A stretch of DNA of 64,000 nt from Psammoneis japonica (lineage: Eukaryota). The stretch covers positions 124,001 to 188,000 of the forward strand of contig QPGO01000051.1 of the NCBI GenBank assembly GCA_008632985.1, written 5' to 3'. This document shows, one piece after another, positions 45,401 through 57,533 of the stretch. The position numbers were made by a program, and so were the translations under genes. Every line of letters starts with the position of its first letter. Position 1 is the stretch's first letter. The notes under the pieces were generated by a model that saw only the letters and a program-made list of their open reading frames with translations, did no database searches and was not told the DNA's origin.

Positions 45401-48400
45401 AACAGCAGCAGGCTTGACTTTCCCAGCTCCAGAGTGCAAGGATCCCATGATGGTGTGAACCAACCTGACAACTGCCAGCAGAGGGCATTGGTGATCTCCT
45501 CCAGTGGACCCCAGGGGATGCGTTTTGAACTGTGGCTGGTCATTGCAAGGTTGATCTTGAAGCGTTGTGGCTGCATGTCATGTTGTGCCCAGCAGCAGCA
45601 GACTTGAACTTCCAAGCTGAAGAGCAACATGACCCCATGACAGCACCAACCAACCAACCTGTCAACAGCAAGCTGAGAAACACCTGCGGTGTCTGGTGCA
45701 CACCAGATGACACTTTGAGAGCTGTGGCTGGACATTGCAAGGTTGATCTTGTGGTGTCATGACCACATGTCACCTTGCTCCCAGCAGCAGCAGACCTGAA
45801 TTGCTCTTTCAAAGGTTTGATTGCTGAGTGGCAGCATGTGAGCAAAACTTCAAAAAGCAATGGAGCAGTGCCAGAAATGCAGAGTTGTTTTGCAGTGGCA
45901 AAATGACTTGAGGAGGAGAATGGAGAAATTTGCAGTGGCAATTTTAAAACAAGTTTCTCTCTTTGTTGGAAGCAACAAGAAAGAACTGCAATGAATGGGC
46001 ACCCTTCTTCTTTCATTTCATGACCCTGATCCAGCAAAGTTCAAGCAAGAGTGGTTCTTGTGCAGGAGGGTTGGTTGGGATGTGAGACAGAAATCAGAAA
46101 TGTGAAAAAACTGAGCTTTGTTGATTGCATGCCACTCAATTTTGGTGGAGGCCATTGCAGCCTTGCCAAGCTTTCCTGCTGTGAGTTGTTGAGAGTGAGT
46201 CTTTGTGGCAAGTCTCATTGATGACACACTTGTTCTTGCAATGTGGTGTCAATCATCCATGCTGACTTTGCTTGAAATTTCAATGTTAAATGAGTGTTCT
46301 GTCTCACCAAAGAGCCTTGGTTGCAGCAACTGCCACTCATGCAATCTGGCTCCTGGAGCCAAGTGTGCCAACAAGCAAGTTGGCACCAGTGTTTGGACAA
46401 GCATGGCATCCAAAGAACCCTCTGCAATCTTCTGAGAAGAGACAAAAATGATGAATCATTCACAGAGCAACAAGAAAGAGCTGCGCAGACATTGGAAATG
46501 ATTTGGAGCTCACTGGCTGAAATTCACTGCTGCCACAGGAGCTGAAACAGAGAGCAGTGTGCAAGCATGGACCAAAAACAAAAAACACAAAATCAAATTC
46601 CAGCCATGTCAGCCCAGACAACTTCTTGGCACCCCAAAAAGTGTTTGTGGGTTGCCAGTCAACAGCTTCAAAATGGCATTGAATGAAGTGCAGATTGGCC
46701 CACACACTGTGATCTGGGTTGGTGTTGGAATTTGTCAGATTGTGATGTGACGACAAGGTTGAGCCAGTTGATGAGCATTTCTGGCAACAGGAAGCATGAA
46801 TGATGATGGGGGTTGAATGACATGGCAATTGTGGGGGCTTTTTGACTTTGCAAATTGGGCCCTGCAGTGCAAATTGACATTGGACAGAAGGAAAGAATTC
46901 AAGTTTGCAATTGCATTGTCTGTCAAAAGGAGATTGGCTCAACAAGAAGCTCATTTTGAATGGAGAGTCTTTTCATTTTGCAGCAGGGGTGCGCCATTGT
47001 CATGCAAACAGCAGATCAGTGGCTGAGTTGTGTGGTGCCCAATGCAACAAAAAGACAAATGCAGCAAAAGAAGACTGAAAACACACACAATGGGCAATCA
47101 AGCTGAAGCTCTTCCAAGCTCACAAATCAACTCAGATGAACAAGATGATGCTGGGCCACAAAACAAAACATTGCAAATCCACCACCATTGGAAAAATCAA
47201 CTCTCAGCAACCTTGAATGACAACTTTGGCAATGCCAGATTTGTGGCTGAAAATGAGGCAGTGACAGAACATTGTTCAGAGTCATCATGGTCACAGAGAC
47301 CGCCGTGGTTGAATGTTGAAAAAATGTGACACTTGTGGAGAGTCAATCACAGGATTTTGTGGATCTTCTCATCAAGAGCAGGAACATGTCACAGGTTGAA
47401 GACATTGTTTTGAGCACTCTTTTGACTGGCTGCCTCCTGAGCACAGCTCCTCACAGCCCTCACTTCTTGTTTGTCAGCATTGTGGGTTCAGCCCTTTTGG
47501 TGTTTGGAGCAAACTGGAGCTGCTCTTTTGCCTCTGCTGCTGGTTGTGGTGATTTTTGCAATGGCAAGCACTTCTGCTGTGCTGCAACAAGCAAAAGACC
47601 AGGCAAGAAAGGCCATGTTGTGGCATGGCAATGGGTGAAAGCTGAAAGGTGACAAGAACATGAGCACAGCCATTGCCAAAAGGAAAGAGAGATGCAAAAG
47701 GAAAAAGAGCTGCAAAAAATTAAACGAACACACTGCTGGGCCAAGAGCAGTGAAAAAAAAACCTCTGAAAGCCGCAACAGGGGACACCAAGGTGTGGTCC
47801 AACAAACCTTCCATGTGGAGGGGAAACAGCACAATGCAAATGACCCATGCACCATGCTGGGACCTGGGGCTGGAGAGCAACAATCAGCAAAGAACTGCCC
47901 TTTTCAGAGGGCACTCATTTGCCCTGCTGCTGAGTGGCAACAAGTTTGCCATTTCTCCCTGCCCAAGCTTGACCTCTTTGTGTTCTTCATCCCAAATGGC
48001 ACAAACACCCACAAGCCATGGAAGCCTTGTGGAGGTCCAGAGTGCCGCTGCCGTTTTGCACTGGATGCTCCATCAAATGGTGGTGTGTGGCCAGCTTGTG
48101 CAAAACAAGAAAGAACGGCACAGCAGAGCATGCACCAGTCATTGAGAAATGCAAGACTTGCTCATCCAAGTCTGAAGGCAACTTCTCTTGTTCTTCTTCA
48201 CTCATGTTGTTTTGATCAGATGTCCCACCCAAGTCATTGCTTGTGAACGGCGCAGACTCTGTGACTGTCCAGTGCTGCCACAAACTCCTCTTTCCTTTGC
48301 GGTGGCAGGCCTGATGAAAAAAAAGGCAAAAATGTCTTGTCCCAAAGCCAGATCTCTGAACAAACAACCACACATGCCATTTGCCCAAGTGGCTGAAGTC

Positions 48401-48585
48401 TCACAAAGAGAGCCCTCCATCCCATCCCCCCCAACTCCTTGGTGGCAATCTCCAAGCCTGTCCTCCTCTCACGAGCAAGAGGCCTGTGTTGTGGTTTGAA
48501 GTGCCCTCAGCTCCAAGCCTCCCCACAGGACACACAAGAAGGTTTTGAGACATCTGTGGTCCTCCTCCCGCGAACCCTCTCGCCT
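42440..48585. other. TpA-depleted hypermutated domain 3
   Basis: About 10 TA by eye in ~6.1 kb; CpG also very rare. Confidence 0.9.
44100..45805. repeat. Diverged tandem array of about 9 units of ~190 bp
   Basis: Anchor (GAC)CCCATGA recurs near 44181, 44368, 44556, 44743, 44864 (short unit), 45058, 45246, 45443 and 45633; TCACCTTGTCCCCAACAGCAGCAGACTTGA recurs in most units. Confidence 0.85.
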
Positions 48586-48780
48586 CTCTCGCTAGCTAGA
48601 GAGAGCATTCAAATGCTGCAACAGGCAGGGATGGGGCATTTCCCCGAGACAATGACGACTCGCGAGAACGCGATTCGCGCGCGTTCGCGGGCGGGGCAAA
48701 AAATTGCACACTTATCTTTTTCTTTGTCACCTTCTTTGCTCTCTCTACACTCATAGACGAAAAGTTAAATGGCTTAAAGA

Positions 48781-50475
48781 ATGTTTAGAAGAAGAATGGC
48801 ATGCTCCACGACTTCGATTCTTCAGCTTTTGCTTCTTCTTTGCCGCTGCTCCATCGCCTCCTTCGCACAAGAAACTCCTGCCATTCAAGTAGAAACGTTT
48901 GATGCTTCAGAAGTATTGCGACAAAATGTTTGTGAACGGCAAGTGTTATTGCATAATGGGACGGTACAGTTGCGAGACGCCCTGAAAGGGATACAACTTC
49001 GACCCCGTGTCAGTGGCGAAATCAAGAGAGACGCAGATACTGGCGCCATCAATGCCGATTATCCGGGTATTATTGGAGTTTTACTGGATGAATTAGCACT
49101 GCGGGGAGGATTTACGTGGCGTGATTCATATGGAATTGGGACTGGCGGGCGAAGATATCGGACCTTTGATGAATTATTAGAATGGAGTGTCGAACACTTT
49201 GATCTCATGGCAGGTGGTTGGACGGAAACGCTAGAAAGAATGAATCGAGGCATCATTTTCCCTGAAGGATGGAGGGATGGGAGCATTATTATGGTGGGAC
49301 TGGACGATTCGAAACAAAGCGAGCTGGATATATGGAGCTTTCTTGAACCATTTACAGCTGGCCTTTGGACCATGATTGGTGTTACCATTGTCGTGTCTGG
49401 ACTGGTGTATTATGCTTTGGAGCGTTTCAACCCAGATTCAGATGTACAAGTCTTGACAAGGCCCTCACAGTCAATATACTTGACTGCTCTGAGTTTCACA
49501 CAGCAGAGTGATTTTCAGCCACAGACTAATTATGCTCGAGTGTTTACCTGGAGTCTCATGTTTTGGTCTCTGATCATGGCGTCTGCATACACGGCAAATC
49601 TGGCGAGCTTTCTTGTGATTGACAACACGCCCGCTATACAAATCAAGACACTTGGAGATGCTGTTCGTCTGGGATTTCCATTGTGTGTTTGGGCTACGAC
49701 CGCTGATGATCGGATCGTTTCAACGGCGTATCCTCAAGCCAAACTCGTCCGAAAGACAAATTATCAAGAAATTTTCGATGGAATTCGACAAGGCGAATGT
49801 CGTTTGGCCGTTAGTTCGCTGAGTGATTGGGAAAGTCACAAGCAGCTGAGTGAAGTAAATGGAGACTGCACTCTCATTTGGATAGGAAGAGTCTTCAAAT
49901 TCGTACAAACTGGTTTCGCCACAGTCTCAGATTCAGGAACGCTTTGCACATCTTTGATAAGAGACGTTATTGACTTGCATATGAAAGAAATGAAAGAGGA
50001 AGGGGTCCTAGACAGAGAGTGGAAAAGTTACTTGGAGCGATCCGCAGATGTCGACTGTGAAAGTGAGGCCGACCTGGCCTCGGAGGACGGAGATTCGATT
50101 CGACTGTCGCTCCGAGACATGGCAGGCCTCTTCATTTTTCATGGCATATTGACAGGAGTGGCTGTTGTGATGTTTGTGTTTACTGCATATTTTGACAGGA
50201 AGAAATGTCGCTTTGTCAAAAGGGAGCCGAAAGGAAAATCCAGGAGGCAAGCGGCAGCATCAATCACTGATGCTCAAGGCATTGAGACTGATGATGACAT
50301 GGCCGCGACGGCGGCTAATGACGGTGTTCCAGTCAGTAGTTCGGTTGTTGTAAGTGAGCAGGCTTCGGATGCCAGGGCAGATGATCAGGAACTGCTAGAG
50401 TTACGAGATCAAATGCGCAAATGGGCCGCACTGCTGGACGAAAAGGTGCAGCAGCAAAAGGCCAACACCGCCTGA
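48781..50475 (+). CDS. Ionotropic glutamate receptor-like (GLR) channel
   Basis: Signal peptide; WSFLEPFTAGLW (pre-M1/M1); SAYTANLASFL (M3 gating motif); LSLRDMAGLF (M4). Confidence 0.9.
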   Translation: MFRRRMACSTTSILQLLLLLCRCSIASFAQETPAIQVETFDASEVLRQNVCERQVLLHNGTVQLRDALKGIQLRPRVSGEIKRDADTGAINADYPGIIGVLLDELALRGGFTWRDSYGIGTGGRRYRTFDELLEWSVEHFDLMAGGWTETLERMNRGIIFPEGWRDGSIIMVGLDDSKQSELDIWSFLEPFTAGLWTMIGVTIVVSGLVYYALERFNPDSDVQVLTRPSQSIYLTALSFTQQSDFQPQTNYARVFTWSLMFWSLIMASAYTANLASFLVIDNTPAIQIKTLGDAVRLGFPLCVWATTADDRIVSTAYPQAKLVRKTNYQEIFDGIRQGECRLAVSSLSDWESHKQLSEVNGDCTLIWIGRVFKFVQTGFATVSDSGTLCTSLIRDVIDLHMKEMKEEGVLDREWKSYLERSADVDCESEADLASEDGDSIRLSLRDMAGLFIFHGILTGVAVVMFVFTAYFDRKKCRFVKREPKGKSRRQAAASITDAQGIETDDDMAATAANDGVPVSSSVVVSEQASDARADDQELLELRDQMRKWAALLDEKVQQQKANTA

Positions 50476-50878
50476 CGACGACCAAGCAAAGTATGGGCTA
50501 CTAGTAGAGAGCTATCTTCTTTGACCATGGCTTGGCTTTGTTTTCCTTCGTCCCATTCGATCTTTCCTCTCAAGCACTCCATCATACAAATCTCGTTTCC
50601 AGATCTTCGAAGGCGTACTGTGTTCATCGATCAAATATTCGACATGGACTTATTACCAGAGCAATCTCCCGAAAGTACGGTGGCATTCTTTTGAACATGG
50701 ATGGTTATATTACAGGTATCATTACACAGCTTCAGCTCTCAAGCGCATCGCAGAGCTTGCTGATAACTAAATCTACACGAATTCCATCGCATCTACTGCC
50801 ACGAATTCCGAGCACACGAATTCCATCGCATCTACTGTCACGAATTCCGAGCAGTCCACGGATCCTTGAATCTTGGAA

Positions 50879-53030
50879 CTAACTAGATTCAGCATTCGCG
50901 GAGGAAGACGAGCTACTTCCTGATTCCTCATCATGGTTGTCAAGGCGACCGTTTTCTTCTCCGGGAGTGTCGTGGTCATTCTCGGAGCAACCGGTCGCGA
51001 CGTCTTCATTAGCGGCGCTCTCAGAGTCGTGTGCGGTGCGACGCACAACCTCGCGTTTAAGGCCCTGCGGTGCATCCGTGTCTGATCGAAGCAAGTATTT
51101 GTCAAGCAAGTCATGTGTGACGTCTGAGTCGAATGCAATGTCAAAACGAGACAGTACTTCCTTCACGATTTCCTCAACCAAGTGATACCTATCATTGACA
51201 CCTCCTTCGCGCACAATCGCACCTTCTTTCTTTAGGAGAGAGTAATCTGGATTGCCTATCAGCTTTTTGCTTTGATAACAACAAAGCAAACTAAGTCCCT
51301 GGCCAGCGCTTCCAGATTTTTCTTTTCGTTTGTATAAGGTATTCAACTCTCGTCGGCACCAAATGGATTTCAAAAAGTTTTCACTGATGATGACAAGACC
51401 CAGTTCACAACTATGTAGGCCGTGAGCGATCTCCTTTTTGACCTTGGCACACTTTGGAATGGACTTTTGGTCAAAAAAGGATGTGATACCCAATTCCTTC
51501 AAAATATAGTGCAACGGTTTAGCAAGATTGGGCTTTGTATCGTCTCCATAGTGGGAGATAAATACCCTCACCGCTTCATTTTCTGAACTATCGTTTGGGG
51601 ATTCAAACACTGCTGCTCTCCACCACTTGCGACTCCACTTTATGTAGATGAGAAGGAGCCCGAGAACCACAAGAAAGCCCACAGAGAGAGGAATTTGTTG
51701 ATGAAGAAAACGGTTCAACTGGTGGCGTCAAACAGTCTTCGTCAGAAAGGTCTAACACATTCACCTGTCCAGCGTTTTCTGACAGTTCTCCCAAACTGCG
51801 CATTGGTGCACCAACAATCAAACGATTGCCATCGCCCGACAGAGAAAGAGCGAATCCAAACTGCGCAAACTCAGCTTCAGCAACAAGATCGTTCCCATAT
51901 GTCCACCATTTCGAGGACTTGGACTTGAAAACCCGGACAAGTCCATGGGGCGCCAACGCAGTTGGTTCCCCTTTGAGGGGAAGCGCGTACAGCGGCGCCC
52001 CATATGCAATAGTGGACGCGTCCGCCGAAATGGCTACAGCCCAGCCAGCAACAGCACGATGCTGTGGACCATCTAATCTCGCTCCAACTAATTTCCACTC
52101 CGATTCATCCTCGTTTAAGCTATAGATCCAAATGTGTCCACTAGCATCCCCGTTTGCGTCGTTGGATCCGATTACGACAGTACTCCCATCGGCGGATAAC
52201 GAAACAGCATAGCCAAGCTGATCGCCAGGCAGTTCTCCGTAAATGTCTTGCCCAATCTGATTCCATGAAAAGGTGATATCGTCAAACCGAAACACTCGTA
52301 ACTGTCCTGTTCCGGTTCCACTTCTGCCATTGAATGGTGCTCCTACAGCGATTGTCGTGCCGTCGGCTGAAAGATCACAGGCGAACCCAGCCTGGTCATT
52401 AGTTGCCCCACCGTCAATGTCACTTCCCATCTGCCTGAGACTGTCCATGACTGAATCATACTTGAATACTCGTGCGTGACCTCCAGTGACAAACGATGCG
52501 GAGTTAAAAGGCGCACCAATAGAGATAATATTCCCGTCTTCTGATAATTTGATTGAGTAGCCGGATAAGTCCGCTTCACCTTCTCCCACAATGTCAACCC
52601 CAAGGTGCATCCAGGCAAGTCGATCCTCGTCAAAACGAAACACTCTCACGTATCCATTGCCGCTGTGGACACCGTCATTGATACCAAAGGTGAAGAGAGA
52701 GCCGGATGCCACAGTCGTACCGTCACCCGAAATGGCCACAGCAAACCCGAATCGATCACCTGCTTTGGAGCCTTCCAAATCTTCACCAAGCTGAATCCAC
52801 GTTTCATTATTTCTATCTAGAGAAAGCACTTGAACGTGCCCGCTCCAAGTTCCCGCATCTCCTTCATGCAGACGAGACCCTGTAATAATGGTTCTTCCAT
52901 CGTTGGAGATATCTACTGCGTATCCGTACTCGTCTGCCGGATTATCTCCATACAAATTCTGACCAACTTTCGACCAAGAACACGCCTCGTCTTCTTGTAG
53001 TAGCCGTGTGCCAGCAAATTCTTTAGGCAT
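50879..53030 (-). CDS. Putative FG-GAP (integrin-alpha-like) beta-propeller + TM + TIR receptor; 1-nt frameshift near 51697
   Basis: About 7 repeats of G..V.LS.DG....GAP.....G.V.V; TM segment IPLSVGFLVVLGLLLIYI followed by KWSRK; TIR motifs VFISH...FFDQKSI...VIISENFLKSIWCRREL. Confidence 0.8.
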
Positions 53031-53358
53031 TGTGATTGAATTTTGATGACGATACTAAAAGACAACTGCGATCATTTGATTGGACGCACACCAACCGTCG
53101 GAACTACTCTATGAAGCAATAATAAGATAGAGAGAAGAGGTCTGATCCGCGATTCGCGGATCGTGGATCGTGATGCGGTCAAAGTTGAAGTCCAGCCCGG
53201 TGGTCGCGGATCTGTAACGGCCACGACTCCGAATGAAGGTGCGTCGACGCGATCCAATCCAAAAAAAAGGAAAGATCGCGCGACCTTTCTTGGCCATCAC
53301 TTTTTTTTGTTCTTCTTTCATGCGCTGGACGAATACATTTTAACAATTCGCATTGACA

Positions 53359-55342
53359 ATGGCTGGTTCTTCTGTTGGAAAGTCGAGTACCTTGACGTAT
53401 GCCTTGGCAGCATGGGGAGGTATAGCTGCCACCACATTTGTTACCCGGTGGTACAAGCGCAGGTCAAGTCGGGCACGGGAAAGAGACGTTGCCCAGCAAA
53501 TGGGCTTGATGCCAGAGGTAGTAAATGCTGTAGATGCGCTCGCGTGGAGAGCAATTCATACACCAGACGCACTTGCTCTGGAGGCCGCTGATGGTGCATC
53601 GTATTCGTGGAAGGAATACAATGAGCAAGTGCAGCAGTTTGCTCGAGCCTTGTTGGCGACCAACTCCAGCGAGAGCAACGAACAAGCTGGTGTTGCTGTT
53701 CACGCCTTTAACGAACCTCGTTGGTTCTTTTCTGCGGTTGGAGCCTTGGCAGCTGAATGGACAATCTCTGGCATATACCTGACCAACTCGTATGCTCAAG
53801 CCGCTCACGTCTTGAAAACATCCCAAGTCAAGGTTTTGGTGCTGGAGTCGGAAGCCTTGCTCAGCACCACATACTCAACGGTTTTGGAGGATTTTCCGAA
53901 CTTGACGGTTGTTCTGCTGCAAGGTGGACAAGCAGTTCAAGGACGAGTATTCTCGTATGAAGCTTTCCTGGAACAAGGAAAGACTGCAAGTGTCTCGTTG
54001 CCTGAATCCCAAAGAGATTTCGCCCTCGACGGTAACCTCGCTTGTCTACACCTCGGGCACGACGGGCAATCCAAAGGCTGTAGAATTGACAAACGAGAAC
54101 GTTCGTTCCGTTTGTGCCATGATGCATGCTCGTATTCCTCTCTCCAAAAAGACAAAGGTGGTGTCGTACTTGCCCCTCAGTCACATTGCAGCCATGGGTA
54201 TTGACATTTACTCTACCCTCTTTTGCGGAGCTAGCGTTCATTTTGCCGATTCCAACGCACTCAAGGGGAGTCTCAAGGATACTCTTTTAAAGGTTCGACC
54301 GACTCTCTTCTTTGGTTGTCCCCCGAGTCTGGGAGAAGATGGCAACCGCCATGCAAACAGCGGCTGCCAAGTCATATGCCAAACCAGTGTCTGGCAAGAT
54401 TCTGAAATCCATTGGAACCGCGGCCAAGACGGTGGGAAAGGCCTGGTGGAGCGCCGATACACCCGAGTGGATGCGCTGTACCCTATTGGTAATTCCCTTT
54501 GGATTCTTCAAGATTCTGCGTACAGAAAAGTCCGAAAGGCCTGTGGGTTGGACCGTTGCGAACTCTTGTACACGGGTGCGGCACCCTTGTCGCCCGACAC
54601 ACTGTGGTATCTCCGCTCGCTAGACATGCCGCTCCTAGAAGTATTTGGCATGTCGGAATCGACGGGAGCCATTGCGGTTTGTGGTCCCTTGGATTGCAGT
54701 AGGCCTATTGGGGCTTGTGGAAAAGCATTACCAATGGGAGAATTGGTAATTGCTCCTGAAGATGGCGAGATTTTGTGGAAGGGATAAAACAATATGGTTG
54801 GATACAAGGGGCTGCCTGCCGCTACGACTGCTGCTCTTGATCCAGACAAGGGCTACTTGCACACGGGAGATTTGGGAAGGGTTGACGAGTCAGGTTATCT
54901 ATTCATTACTGGGCGCAAGAAAGACATTATCATTACAGCCGGCGGAGAAAACGTAGCGCCAAGTCCGATTGAAGAAACCATCATGTCGCTGCTGGGCGGG
55001 TCCGCTGGCCATGTTGTGCTAATCGGAGACCAGCGTAAGTTCTTGTCGATTCTGATTGCTCCTACAGAATCAGGGGACATTCCCACCGAAGATCAGGTAG
55101 CACAAGCCATGAAGGAGTACAATGAAAACCATGCCAAATCTCGCGCCCAACGTGTCCAAAAGGCTCACTGTTTGGAGTTTCCTTTGGACGTTTCAACGGG
55201 AGAACTGACTCCAACCATGAAGCTGAAGCGCCCCGTTGTCATGCAAAAGTTCTTGAAGGAAATCGACGCAATGTATAAAGAGGGAGGAAAGCTTATTGGA
55301 TACTCCAGTATGAATATCGGGGCAATTTCGTCGGCACTCTAA
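53359..55342 (+). pseudogene. Long-chain acyl-CoA synthetase (ACSBG-like) with 3 frameshifts and 1 in-frame stop (pseudogene or assembly error)
   Basis: YTSGTTGNPK, SYLPLSHIAA, VPRVWEK, FGMSES, LHTGDLG, GRKKDIIITAGGENVAP, ELTPTMKLKR. Lesions near 54010, 54316 and 54518, plus TAA at 54785-54787. Confidence 0.85.
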
Positions 55343-55473
55343 GAGTCTTCGGTCTGGTTTCAGTGTTGAGTATCGCCTTCAACTGCAGAATAATTTTAAA
55401 ACTTGTCTGAGCATCGCCTTCAACTGCAGAATAACTTTAAACTTGTCTGTCGGTACAACTCGAAATTGCGTCT

Positions 55474-56088
55474 CTATCGTGGACTTCTGGCTGGTCTCTT
55501 TCTTCGATTTGTAGAGTTCTCGGGCAATTGTCCTGTCACATGCGCCTTCTTTCTCAACATTGGTGCTAATCCCCCGTAGTGAACGAAGAACATACGCCAG
55601 TGAAACGCAGCATCCGTCTTGCCCTGCAGCCATTGTCGAAAGGACGGGCACCGCTTTGATTCCTCCACAACTTCTGCTGTCAAACCCAGCCACTCTCGAC
55701 ACGCTCTACGAAATTCCATTTCTTCGTGGTCTGTAATTCCATAATCCACATCCTCATGGAAAGTCTTGTACTTTAATTCTTGTTGCTGCAAACACTCGTA
55801 TGCTTCCGTCACAAGACGAAATTGCTTGGCTGCATCAATTCTGTTCTTTTCCGACTTTTCGCCGTTTGACGTTTTAGCCAAGACATCGGGGTGGCTCTTT
55901 TTGGCAGCCATGAGGTATGCCGTTCTCAACTGTTTAGGTGTGAACTTTTCCACATCCGTTAGGCCAAGAACCTGTTTGGCAGAACTTGTCGTAATGGCAC
56001 GACGCCGTAGCGATAGACAAACATCATGCCTGCTTATGAAACTCCTCCTTAGTGACAGTGCGCATATGCTTGCATAGGCGTTCATCAT
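55474..56088 (-). CDS. DnaJ-domain protein, probably mitochondrial
   Basis: VLGL...LRTAYLMAAKKSHPD...FRLVTEAYECL; Arg/Ser-rich presequence. Confidence 0.85.
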   Translation of the reverse strand: MMNAYASICALSLRRSFISRHDVCLSLRRRAITTSSAKQVLGLTDVEKFTPKQLRTAYLMAAKKSHPDVLAKTSNGEKSEKNRIDAAKQFRLVTEAYECLQQQELKYKTFHEDVDYGITDHEEMEFRRACREWLGLTAEVVEESKRCPSFRQWLQGKTDAAFHWRMFFVHYGGLAPMLRKKAHVTGQLPENSTNRRKRPARSPR

Positions 56089-57533
56089 TTACCATAGAAG
56101 TATCTGTGTTTTGAGTGGCTATGCTGTATGCTTCTCTACCCTCATGGTCGAGTCAGAATAATTAGTGAGAGATCCAGATCTCAGATCGATCGCTGAGTAA
56201 TCGTCACCGTGTCAGCGCGCGTTCCGCCGGCGGACGGACGGGCTTACTACTTCTAATCTAACTTCTACTACTCGCTACAGTAAGAGAGCTAGAGAGTCCA
56301 ACTATACACATGGTGAGAATCTCTACTCTAGACTTTGGGATTTGGATCGCCACCAGCTACATATAGCATGGCTTTCGGGCTGGCATACAGGAGAAGTCTT
56401 AAAGAGCGATAGTACTGGAGAAATCGGCATTTGTTTATTTTCGTTCTCTACTAGGGACCCTACTCTTTCGACACTAATCGGAGGCATGCTTTATCTTTTC
56501 GAATGCTATACTCGAGGGCGTCTATTTCCAATCATCTAGACAAAGAGACACTACAGTACCATAATGAAACATACATTTTGGAGCCAATGACAACAATAAC
56601 CTATGGGGTACTTTCAGGTGTTTTCTTACGACTATAACTTGAGATCAAAGGAAATCCCGGACGACTGAACACACCATGAGACTGTCACCTCTCTATTGGA
56701 ACTGTTGGAGATCGGTGGCAAGCTCACAGAAATCCAATAAGTCGCAATGATGATGCATGTAGCGATCGTGGCGAGAGGCTTGCAAGCTGTAGGCTGTGCT
56801 GCAGAATTCCGCTTGATGACTCTTGATTTGAACACCCAACCGCTCACACAAAGCAATGCTGCGTTAGGCTTTTTCCGAATAGTCACGCTTGTGGTGCTTC
56901 TTGATATGAGGCCTCGAAACGCCAGATGTTGTTCTGATTGGCTGTTTGTTCTGAGGAAAGGTGTCTTTTTCGTCATGAGGAACATCAATGGGCCACTGAG
57001 TCTCTGTTGTTACTGTCGGCTGAATCAAATCGGGCCGAAGTACTGCACTTCCGAGAATAAAACCCAGCACGATTTGAACCACATTTGCCACCATCTTTTC
57101 GTTTTCGACAAGAAAAGAATACCCTCTCTTATTCTCATTGGTCATTGGGAAATAATGAGAAAGGACGAGAACAGAACTCGGCGCCATCTGCGCGCTTCTT
57201 CGCGTGTTGTCGACTGCGTTTTTTGTCTGTCATGTCCGTGTGTCTTTGTTGCGTGGTTTGCCGAAGTGGAAGAATCGCGACCCGAGATGACCATGGCGAA
57301 GAGGCATGTGGCAACAATGGAGGCATCCCAATTTTTTCTATATCACTGCCCAAACCATTGTTAAATGAACAAGTGGATACTTGCACAAAGAGAAGACACA
57401 AAGCTAACTGCATTTGGCAACTAATTCAAATTATTCCTGATGTAACAGTGAGGAGAGAAATCCGCATTTTTCGTCGCAAATACTGCTTGCACTTCACGGC
57501 TGCTTGCCCGTTCTCGATTCAATAGTCCGGTCA

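Follow-up and report, generated by a model that had tools for sequence, protein, structure and literature searches.

A putative receptor gene joining an FG-GAP propeller, a membrane helix and a TIR domain in Psammoneis japonica, probably broken by a frameshift in the assembled haplotype

Organization of the locus

The window analysed here is a 64,000-nt stretch of contig QPGO01000051.1 in the Psammoneis japonica assembly GCA_008632985.1 (genome 91 Mb), and the feature under study occupies positions 50879-53030 on its minus strand, on which all parts of the gene described below lie. Two ORFs overlap there at 51603-51727, the frame of ORF2 being one base on from that of ORF1. ORF1 (51603-53054) has 483 codons from stop to stop; its first ATG is at 53030, and the 475 aa read from it (51603-53030) comprise a propeller followed by an out-of-frame tail ending at a TGA. 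ORF2 (50879-51727) holds a membrane helix and a TIR domain, and since none of its 282 codons is a methionine it cannot be a stand-alone unspliced gene. Pfam matches were obtained for both ORFs, FG-GAP_2 (PF14312, E 1.7e-16) for ORF1 and TIR_2 (E 1.8e-12) and TIR (E 3.5e-10) for ORF2, and the architecture is intact in five relatives, which bears out the claim of an earlier reading of the letters alone (hereafter the sequence-only reading) that a fused propeller, transmembrane helix and TIR domain lies at 50879-53030.

Upstream of ORF1, at 53055-53075, an in-frame ATG opens six codons that end in a TAG (53057-53055), as the sequence-only reading had described for an ATG near 53075, and no intact signal peptide is evident in the window. 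The same TAG can be read as a splice acceptor rich in pyrimidines (ttgtcttttag), and it is possible that an upstream exon feeds this acceptor. Directly ahead of the propeller lies an R/L-rich motif, RLLQ (52995-53006), with the counterparts RRLQ, RRQLQ and LRGLQ in the relatives P0004, P0001 and P0003, respectively, which we take to resemble the processing-site motif of secreted diatom proteins. The propeller itself (51744-52976), of seven FG-GAP_2-type blades and of bacterial type, was recognized from Pfam, blade pattern and model, and is flanked by Cys17 (52980-52982), present in all four relatives that have the region, and Cys433 (51732-51734), kept in all five. It is followed by a stalk (51694-51727), along which homology to the relatives passes from the frame of ORF1 to that of ORF2, by the transmembrane helix (51641-51694) with a basic, Trp-rich juxtamembrane stretch after it (positive-inside), by the TIR domain (51143-51565), recognized from Pfam, alignment and fold model, and by an acidic, Ser-rich C-terminal tail with the stop (50879-51142), which is unconserved among relatives.

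The neighbouring genes are a glutamate-receptor-like ligand-gated channel gene (48778-50475, plus strand), which converges on the 3' end of the TIR, and an acyl-CoA synthetase-like gene (53344-55342, plus strand), in which a stop at 54785-54787 remains after the corrections given below, perhaps within an intron. Neither of them ties the gene to defence, and the adjacency of the channel gene is taken as chance. The observed/expected ratio of TA was 0.50-0.54 in the gene versus 0.48-0.57 in its neighbours, and TpA hypermutation thus does not touch the gene. A TpA-depleted block at 46000-48500 (TA observed/expected 0.01, CG 0.10) ends about 2.4 kb from it.

The fused relatives and the types of the two domains

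With the helix and TIR as query, a phmmer search against 1.84 billion representatives returned 2386 matches, of which the best 150 were examined. The fused relatives rank 1-4 and 8 among these best 150, with 38-49% identity to the window query, and FG-GAP_2, helix and TIR were found in one open frame in 5 of the 15 matches scanned by domain, namely P0001 (672 aa), P0002 (557 aa, partial), P0003 (917 aa), P0004 (739 aa), and P0008 (1152 aa). All five are unnamed singletons from Logan and ENA and are 30-52% identical to each other, and with them the homologues of fused architecture, whose lack would have spoken against the sequence-only reading, were at hand. A BLAST comparison of the window propeller with 154 proteins gave a strong match to the same five and a weak match to one other, and tblastn of the relatives on the window showed a switch from frame -3 to frame -1 at the stalk. 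The TIR of P0003 holds a 20-residue insert resembling a retained intron, which would point to eukaryotes.

A quick tree of 137 TIR rows (P0001-P0060, that is 60 of the best 150, together with own-genome rows and four metagenome loci, and with no animal TLR) placed the window TIR in a 10-row clade with all five fused relatives (SH-aLRT 95). The clade also holds the TIR-only fragments P0005 and P0015 and the long-branch outsiders P0056 and L077, while the other own-genome TIRs stand apart. In a quick FastTree of 56 propeller rows, from which P0001 and P0008 are absent since their propellers fell outside the 55 best rows, the window propeller grouped with P0003 and P0004 with a support of 100, all three on long branches, and its best match among 143 sequences was again P0003. 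Of the 26 matches to the TIR query in the genome, all but that of the gene itself (25) covered only the first 92 of its 147 residues. Both halves of the gene are therefore closest to the same fused foreign proteins and not to paralogues, which argues that they came down together and are no fresh collage. We have little doubt that the fused family is real, and the window copy is very probably a member of it that is broken in the assembled haplotype: both domains group with the family, and the single open frame is absent in the window.

When longer proteins were sought with ORF2 by word index, none turned up among 1716 candidates, and the alignment version of this search recovered two of the five fused proteins, being too insensitive to bound the family. 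In a full-length alignment search, three of the best 120 of 1742 matches carried a TIR, all of them already in the query, and the family TIR profile matched none of the 117 proteins that were new. A metagenome scan gave 13 loci from 118 stretches, and none of the four loci read carries a propeller; five variants of the window ORF were likewise absent from the protein collection. A full-text literature search, outside which lie most subscription papers and some preprint supplements, found no description of an FG-GAP-TM-TIR protein, and the family, with at least five intact members, is apparently undescribed. The sequence-only reading had called such a receptor unusual, and this holds for the architecture in the literature searched; for a surface receptor to carry an enzymatic TIR is less exceptional than was assumed, since the TIR of TLR4 can make cADPR according to the accessible part of a preprint (bioRxiv 10.64898/2026.04.20.719644).

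Elsewhere in the genome, the search gave 208 propeller and 32 TIR matches, and none of the propeller loci coincides with a TIR match. Seventeen of the 19 propeller loci fetched were read, and in 14 of the 17 the helix comes before the propeller, the reverse of the order in the window gene. Such a helix-then-propeller (type II) FG-GAP family is large and clustered on a few contigs (L022-L040). The TIR genes include a TIR-helix-LRR gene (L067, 1114-2931, plus strand), which inverts the order of a Toll-like receptor, some twelve proteins of ROC-COR-like type with a C-terminal TIR (L051-L078, translations read by eye), and other fusions such as TIR-kelch-TIR (L071, with the foreign relative P0006), ankyrin-TIR (L054), a TIR with a U-box-like end (L068), and TIR-helix-NTPase (L077).

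The fold model of the window TIR (pLDDT 92.6, pTM 0.88) is nearest by Foldseek to RUN1 (E 2.2e-7) and AbTir (7uxu, rmsd 2.4), and the sequence comparison gave E values of 8.6e-9 for AbTir and 6.5e-7 for Roq1 in comparison to 0.16-0.17 for TLR2. Sequence and predicted fold both place the TIR with the enzyme type known from plants and bacteria, and not in the animal TLR lineage. The glutamate to which the sequence-only reading had drawn attention in a WCxxEL motif is kept, as WCRREL of the window aligns with WTNYEL of AbTir, Glu with Glu, and this catalytic-position residue (51347-51349) is invariant in 7/7 aligned family TIRs, as are F-x-x-H-x-G-x-DTK, WCR-x-EL, and VR. At 51449-51451, presumably the BB-loop position, the window has a Cys where 6/6 relatives and AbTir have the conserved Gly. 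The BB-loop Gly is needed for TIR assembly, and judging from the alignment the change may impair the window copy. In the accessible part of a published screen, 25 of 154 Glu-bearing eukaryotic TIRs gave detectable product, the figure for unicellular eukaryotes being 4 of 29, and the active ones include cryptophyte, oomycete and amoebozoan TIRs and TLR4 (bioRxiv 10.64898/2026.04.20.719644). The conserved residues suggest, at slightly better than even odds, that the TIR is enzymatically active in the family. The prokaryote genomes searched held no close match to the family TIR, with four weak loci from 23 pattern stretches (best E 1e-5), and in the ESM Atlas the window TIR fell to generic TIR clusters at 0.89 and P0004 had no usable match, which is no evidence either way.

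For the ectodomain, seven regularly spaced blade starts were found by pattern in ORF1, in agreement with the propeller of about seven FG-GAP blades proposed at the outset. A single-sequence AlphaFold model was all-beta (pLDDT 65.8, pTM 0.76) and matched WD40-type propellers with a TM of about 0.5; its quality is modest, and it confirms the class of fold and no more. The description of this ectodomain as integrin-alpha-like was overstated. Integrin alpha chains have leg domains and a GFFKR tail, and the stalk of the family, 10-20 residues long and rich in proline, is too short for leg domains. A motif scan of the window propeller gave 0 Cage matches and 0 DxDxDG loops, as these motifs are defined for the integrin propeller in the accessible part of PMC3192720, and no GFFKR-like motif; among the relatives, Cage and DxDxDG occur once each in P0008 alone and in none of the other four, and a GFFKR-like motif was found in none of the six proteins scanned (window and five relatives). 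Among the best 120 of 1742 matches, the propeller relatives that have a name are for the most part secreted proteins of bacteria, a good number of them with a T9SS tail, and a Chaetoceros protein is also found among the propeller relatives. On these motifs and relatives, the window propeller is bacterial-type rather than integrin-type. Four proteins of 1202 aa (P0244-P0246 and P0251) join the same propeller type to PF16903/PF04451, which we take to be capsid families of large DNA viruses.

Common to the family are a Cys directly before blade 1 and a Cys directly after blade 7, and a C-x(0-2)-W start was seen in 3 of the 56 propeller rows, all three of them family members; the pair is a candidate disulfide clasp around the propeller. 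P0008 carries before its propeller an extra Cys-rich, twice-repeated extracellular region (residues 25-460) with no Pfam match, which indicates that the family varies its ectodomain.

The membrane helix of the window is a hydrophobic 18-19-mer at 51694-51641 (mean Kyte-Doolittle 2.3), next to which stands KWSRKWWR, and K/R is richer after the helix than before it in five of the six proteins, being equal in P0008. The 9-residue hydropathy at the N-terminus was 2.47 for P0008, 1.66 for P0003, 1.02 for P0004, 0.92 for P0001, and -0.04 for the window. P0008 begins with a hydrophobic signal-peptide-like stretch, that of P0003 is weak, and P0002 is partial; by hydropathy alone, neither the window nor P0001 and P0004 at their called starts show an evident signal peptide, and these three starts may follow an intron. 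A signal peptide was seen in one of the six proteins. Among 74 upstream-exon models for the window none gave a clear signal peptide, the best 9-residue hydropathy being 1.81 in comparison to 2.47 for P0008. Taken together, the Cys pair, the RRLQ-type motif, the stalk, the K/R bias and the TIR motifs agree with a propeller that is oxidised and lies outside the cell and with a TIR on the inner side. An outside-in receptor topology is thus likely as far as sequence features can tell, and the intact protein would most likely be a type I surface or endomembrane receptor.

The frameshift and the two haplotypes

Contigs of three runs (X1, X2 and X3) of one sample were compared over 48700-56200. An X2 contig spans 49222-53042 at 60x with seven substitutions and no gap, and as it crosses the frameshift, the shifted junction exists in DNA; the contig comparison has no indel row near 51697. 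As a control, the indels at 54005, 54316, and 54516/7 in the neighbouring acyl-CoA synthetase gene were corrected in both runs, and the correction of these three joins its frames into 480 codons versus 293 as assembled, which indicates that the comparison reveals assembly errors where they are present. The sequence-only reading had named the shift as a caveat, and the gap-free crossing argues for a haplotype that is broken and not mis-assembled. The proposal to restore the frame by removing one A near 51697 stands in so far as the frame switches there, but a single extra A is not required: in the window, some 36 residues separate the last Cys of the propeller from the Trp next to the membrane, versus 42-49 in 5/5 relatives, and a small deletion therefore fits as well.

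In X1, cover by long contigs breaks off at 51695 and begins again at 51722, leaving between two of them a gap at 51696-51721 with about 35x excess depth across it, and the excess in both bins equals one 86-base branch at 34.7-34.9x. An X1 bubble at 55433-55573 has two branches at 36.5x and 38.2x, close to the depth of the junction branch. The half-depth break at the junction suggests a heterozygous site, the other branch of which is not among the contigs seen, being perhaps too divergent to align or removed by a filter. Judged from depth alone, the second allele probably differs at the junction, and the chance that it is intact lies a little below even. The 5' end is also heterozygous: over 52939-53205 one of the haplotypes has a depth of 32.7x, and at 53151 there is a loose end. 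This loose end, the X1 insertion site, is the end of a 208-base MITE (a copy is, for example, L042 1501-1708) with long terminal inverted repeats, 4-base target duplications in three of the five copies read, and 120 end matches in the genome. The insertion is polymorphic: in the other haplotype it sits within the divergent promoter of 300 bases that the gene has in common with the acyl-CoA synthetase gene. Cover of the second haplotype is missing at 52969-53150 in X1 and at 53043-53327 in X2, and X3 has no contigs over the locus; nothing can be concluded from such holes. Neither the junction nor the 5' region was found a second time in the assembly.

Apart from the frameshift, there is no other stop in about 720 codons, and the family-invariant columns broken in the window number 2 of 29 in the TIR and 11 of 71 in the propeller, in comparison to ranges of 0-8 and 0-18 in the relatives; the Gly-to-Cys change is one of the two in the TIR. 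The lesion thus looks recent and there is no general decay. In general, the analysis suggested that the haplotype in the assembly carries a real frameshift in the stalk and would make a truncated propeller only, and hence is probably a dead allele. Introns bridging the two frames were enumerated and rejected, an 82-nt one dropping the conserved helix and a 46-nt one the last strand and the Cys.

Comparison with known systems and proposed function

An ectodomain, one helix and a C-terminal cytoplasmic TIR make up the layout of TLRs and IL-1Rs in the accessible parts of PMC6040629 and PMC2939053, and in this the window gene and its relatives resemble the animal and choanoflagellate TLRs and the IL-1R family. 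Unlike TLRs, however, ORF1 and 5/5 relatives carry FG-GAP_2 and no LRR family, the window TIR is far closer to bacterial/plant TIRs than to TLR2, and only one of six proteins shows a signal peptide; unlike the IL-1 receptor family, neither window nor relatives have an Ig ectodomain. With the NAD+-cleaving TIRs (AbTir; RUN1, Roq1, RPP1, L6/L7) the family shares the fold, the FISH strand and the catalytic-position Glu, but AbTir and the plant TIRs are soluble or NLR-linked, whereas the family TIR is attached to a membrane helix that follows a propeller. Among protists, a TIR NADase tethered to the membrane is described in the accessible part of a preprint on Dictyostelium TirC (bioRxiv 10.64898/2026.04.30.722052), which has an N-terminal helix only and no ectodomain, in contrast to the propeller of the window gene. 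The seven-blade FG-GAP-class propeller on a single-pass protein recalls integrin alpha and the brown algal and Pirsonia integrin-like proteins, but the window has no Cage, DxDxDG or GFFKR-like motif and no room in its stalk for leg domains; in the accessible parts of the publications on stramenopile FG-GAP proteins, TIR is not among the partner domains listed. The layout is thus TLR/IL-1R-like, yet membership of the TLR, IL-1R and integrin groups fails on the ectodomain and on the TIR lineage.

The explanation that best covers these observations as a whole, to which we assign a probability of roughly 0.6, is a single-gene receptor family with NAD+ cleavage switched by clustering, and a dead allele at this locus. 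The sequence shows the locus to be a single gene that has long belonged to a small family of proteins crossing the membrane once, in the order of a seven-blade propeller with a Cys pair that may close it, a short Pro-rich stalk, a helix, a TIR predicted to be cytoplasmic and a disordered tail. A ligand outside, most plausibly a microbial or cell-surface polymer, would bind and cluster the propellers. Self-assembly and NAD+ cleavage are established for plant and bacterial TIRs, and by analogy the clustered TIR domains would self-assemble and begin to cleave NAD+, the output being either a messenger of the cyclic ADP-ribose type or the loss of NAD+, without MyD88-type adaptors. An immune role is the likeliest single guess, resting on the record of TIRs elsewhere, and is proposed tentatively, at something short of even odds.

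The same architecture could be put to other use, with the TIR as a non-catalytic scaffold recruiting other TIR proteins or the receptor serving adhesion, mating or wall sensing. We regard this as unlikely, given that the family keeps F-x-S-H, WC and EL with little or no variation and that the nearest solved relatives of the TIR are enzymes; in its favor are the varied partners of the 32 TIR matches in the genome (ROC-COR-TIR, TIR-kelch, TIR-U-box and ankyrin-TIR), the large surface-propeller family, whose 14 helix-then-propeller loci out of 17 read are without TIR, and the silence of most Glu-bearing TIRs in the accessible part of the screen (10.64898/2026.04.20.719644). Other alternatives bear on the window copy. 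It might function in an altered form, as a cytosolic sensor after removal of the helix by an 82-nt intron (51719-51638), the GT-AG pair of which is in phase, or through a +1 ribosomal slip at CCG-TTT-TCT; the missing signal peptide would be coherent with a cytosolic sensor, and both ORFs are stop-free and undecayed. Such an intron, however, would skip a helix whose homologue is kept in 5/5 relatives, with a donor (GTTGAA) and an acceptor (AAG) that are weak against the consensus, the 46-nt alternative (51764-51719) deletes the last strand and the conserved Cys, and slippage is no family trait as 5/5 relatives are in frame, which makes the altered form improbable.

An intact gene with a sequencing or assembly error is more improbable still: although three such errors lie in the neighbouring gene and the X1 break at 51695 sits where the loss of one base of a three-base run would place it, the X2 contig at 60x and the X1 branch deduced at 35x both match the window without a gap, and no indel row was seen at the junction. 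The 208 propeller and 32 TIR matches would give ample material for two separate genes or a recent chance juxtaposition, but this is largely refuted, and hardly credible, in view of an ORF2 with no Met and of halves that share their closest relatives in the same fused foreign proteins. That both alleles are dead and the gene is a young pseudogene in the lineage, which bears on the copy and not on the family, is a possibility with the odds somewhat against it; the frameshift, the lack of a signal peptide, the Gly-to-Cys change and, in the other haplotype, a promoter with the polymorphic MITE point that way, against which about 720 codons show one clear lesion only.

A broader proposal is that diatom-like algae independently built Toll-like pattern-recognition receptors, in which a bacterial-type FG-GAP propeller stands before a catalytic TIR and a cyclic ADP-ribose-type messenger is made at the membrane. 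We consider it unlikely at present. If true, this family would form, together with the TIR-TM-LRR gene, a microbe-sensing receptor layer in a group where pathogen-specific recognition is described as poorly evidenced, and a live/dead allele pair at the locus would be natural variation in that layer. The family matters more than the window copy, its five intact sequences being concrete TIRs for an E. coli/LC-MS assay, and if conserved, a propeller-TM-TIR family would add, outside animals, a third kind of ectodomain to the designs of TIR receptors.
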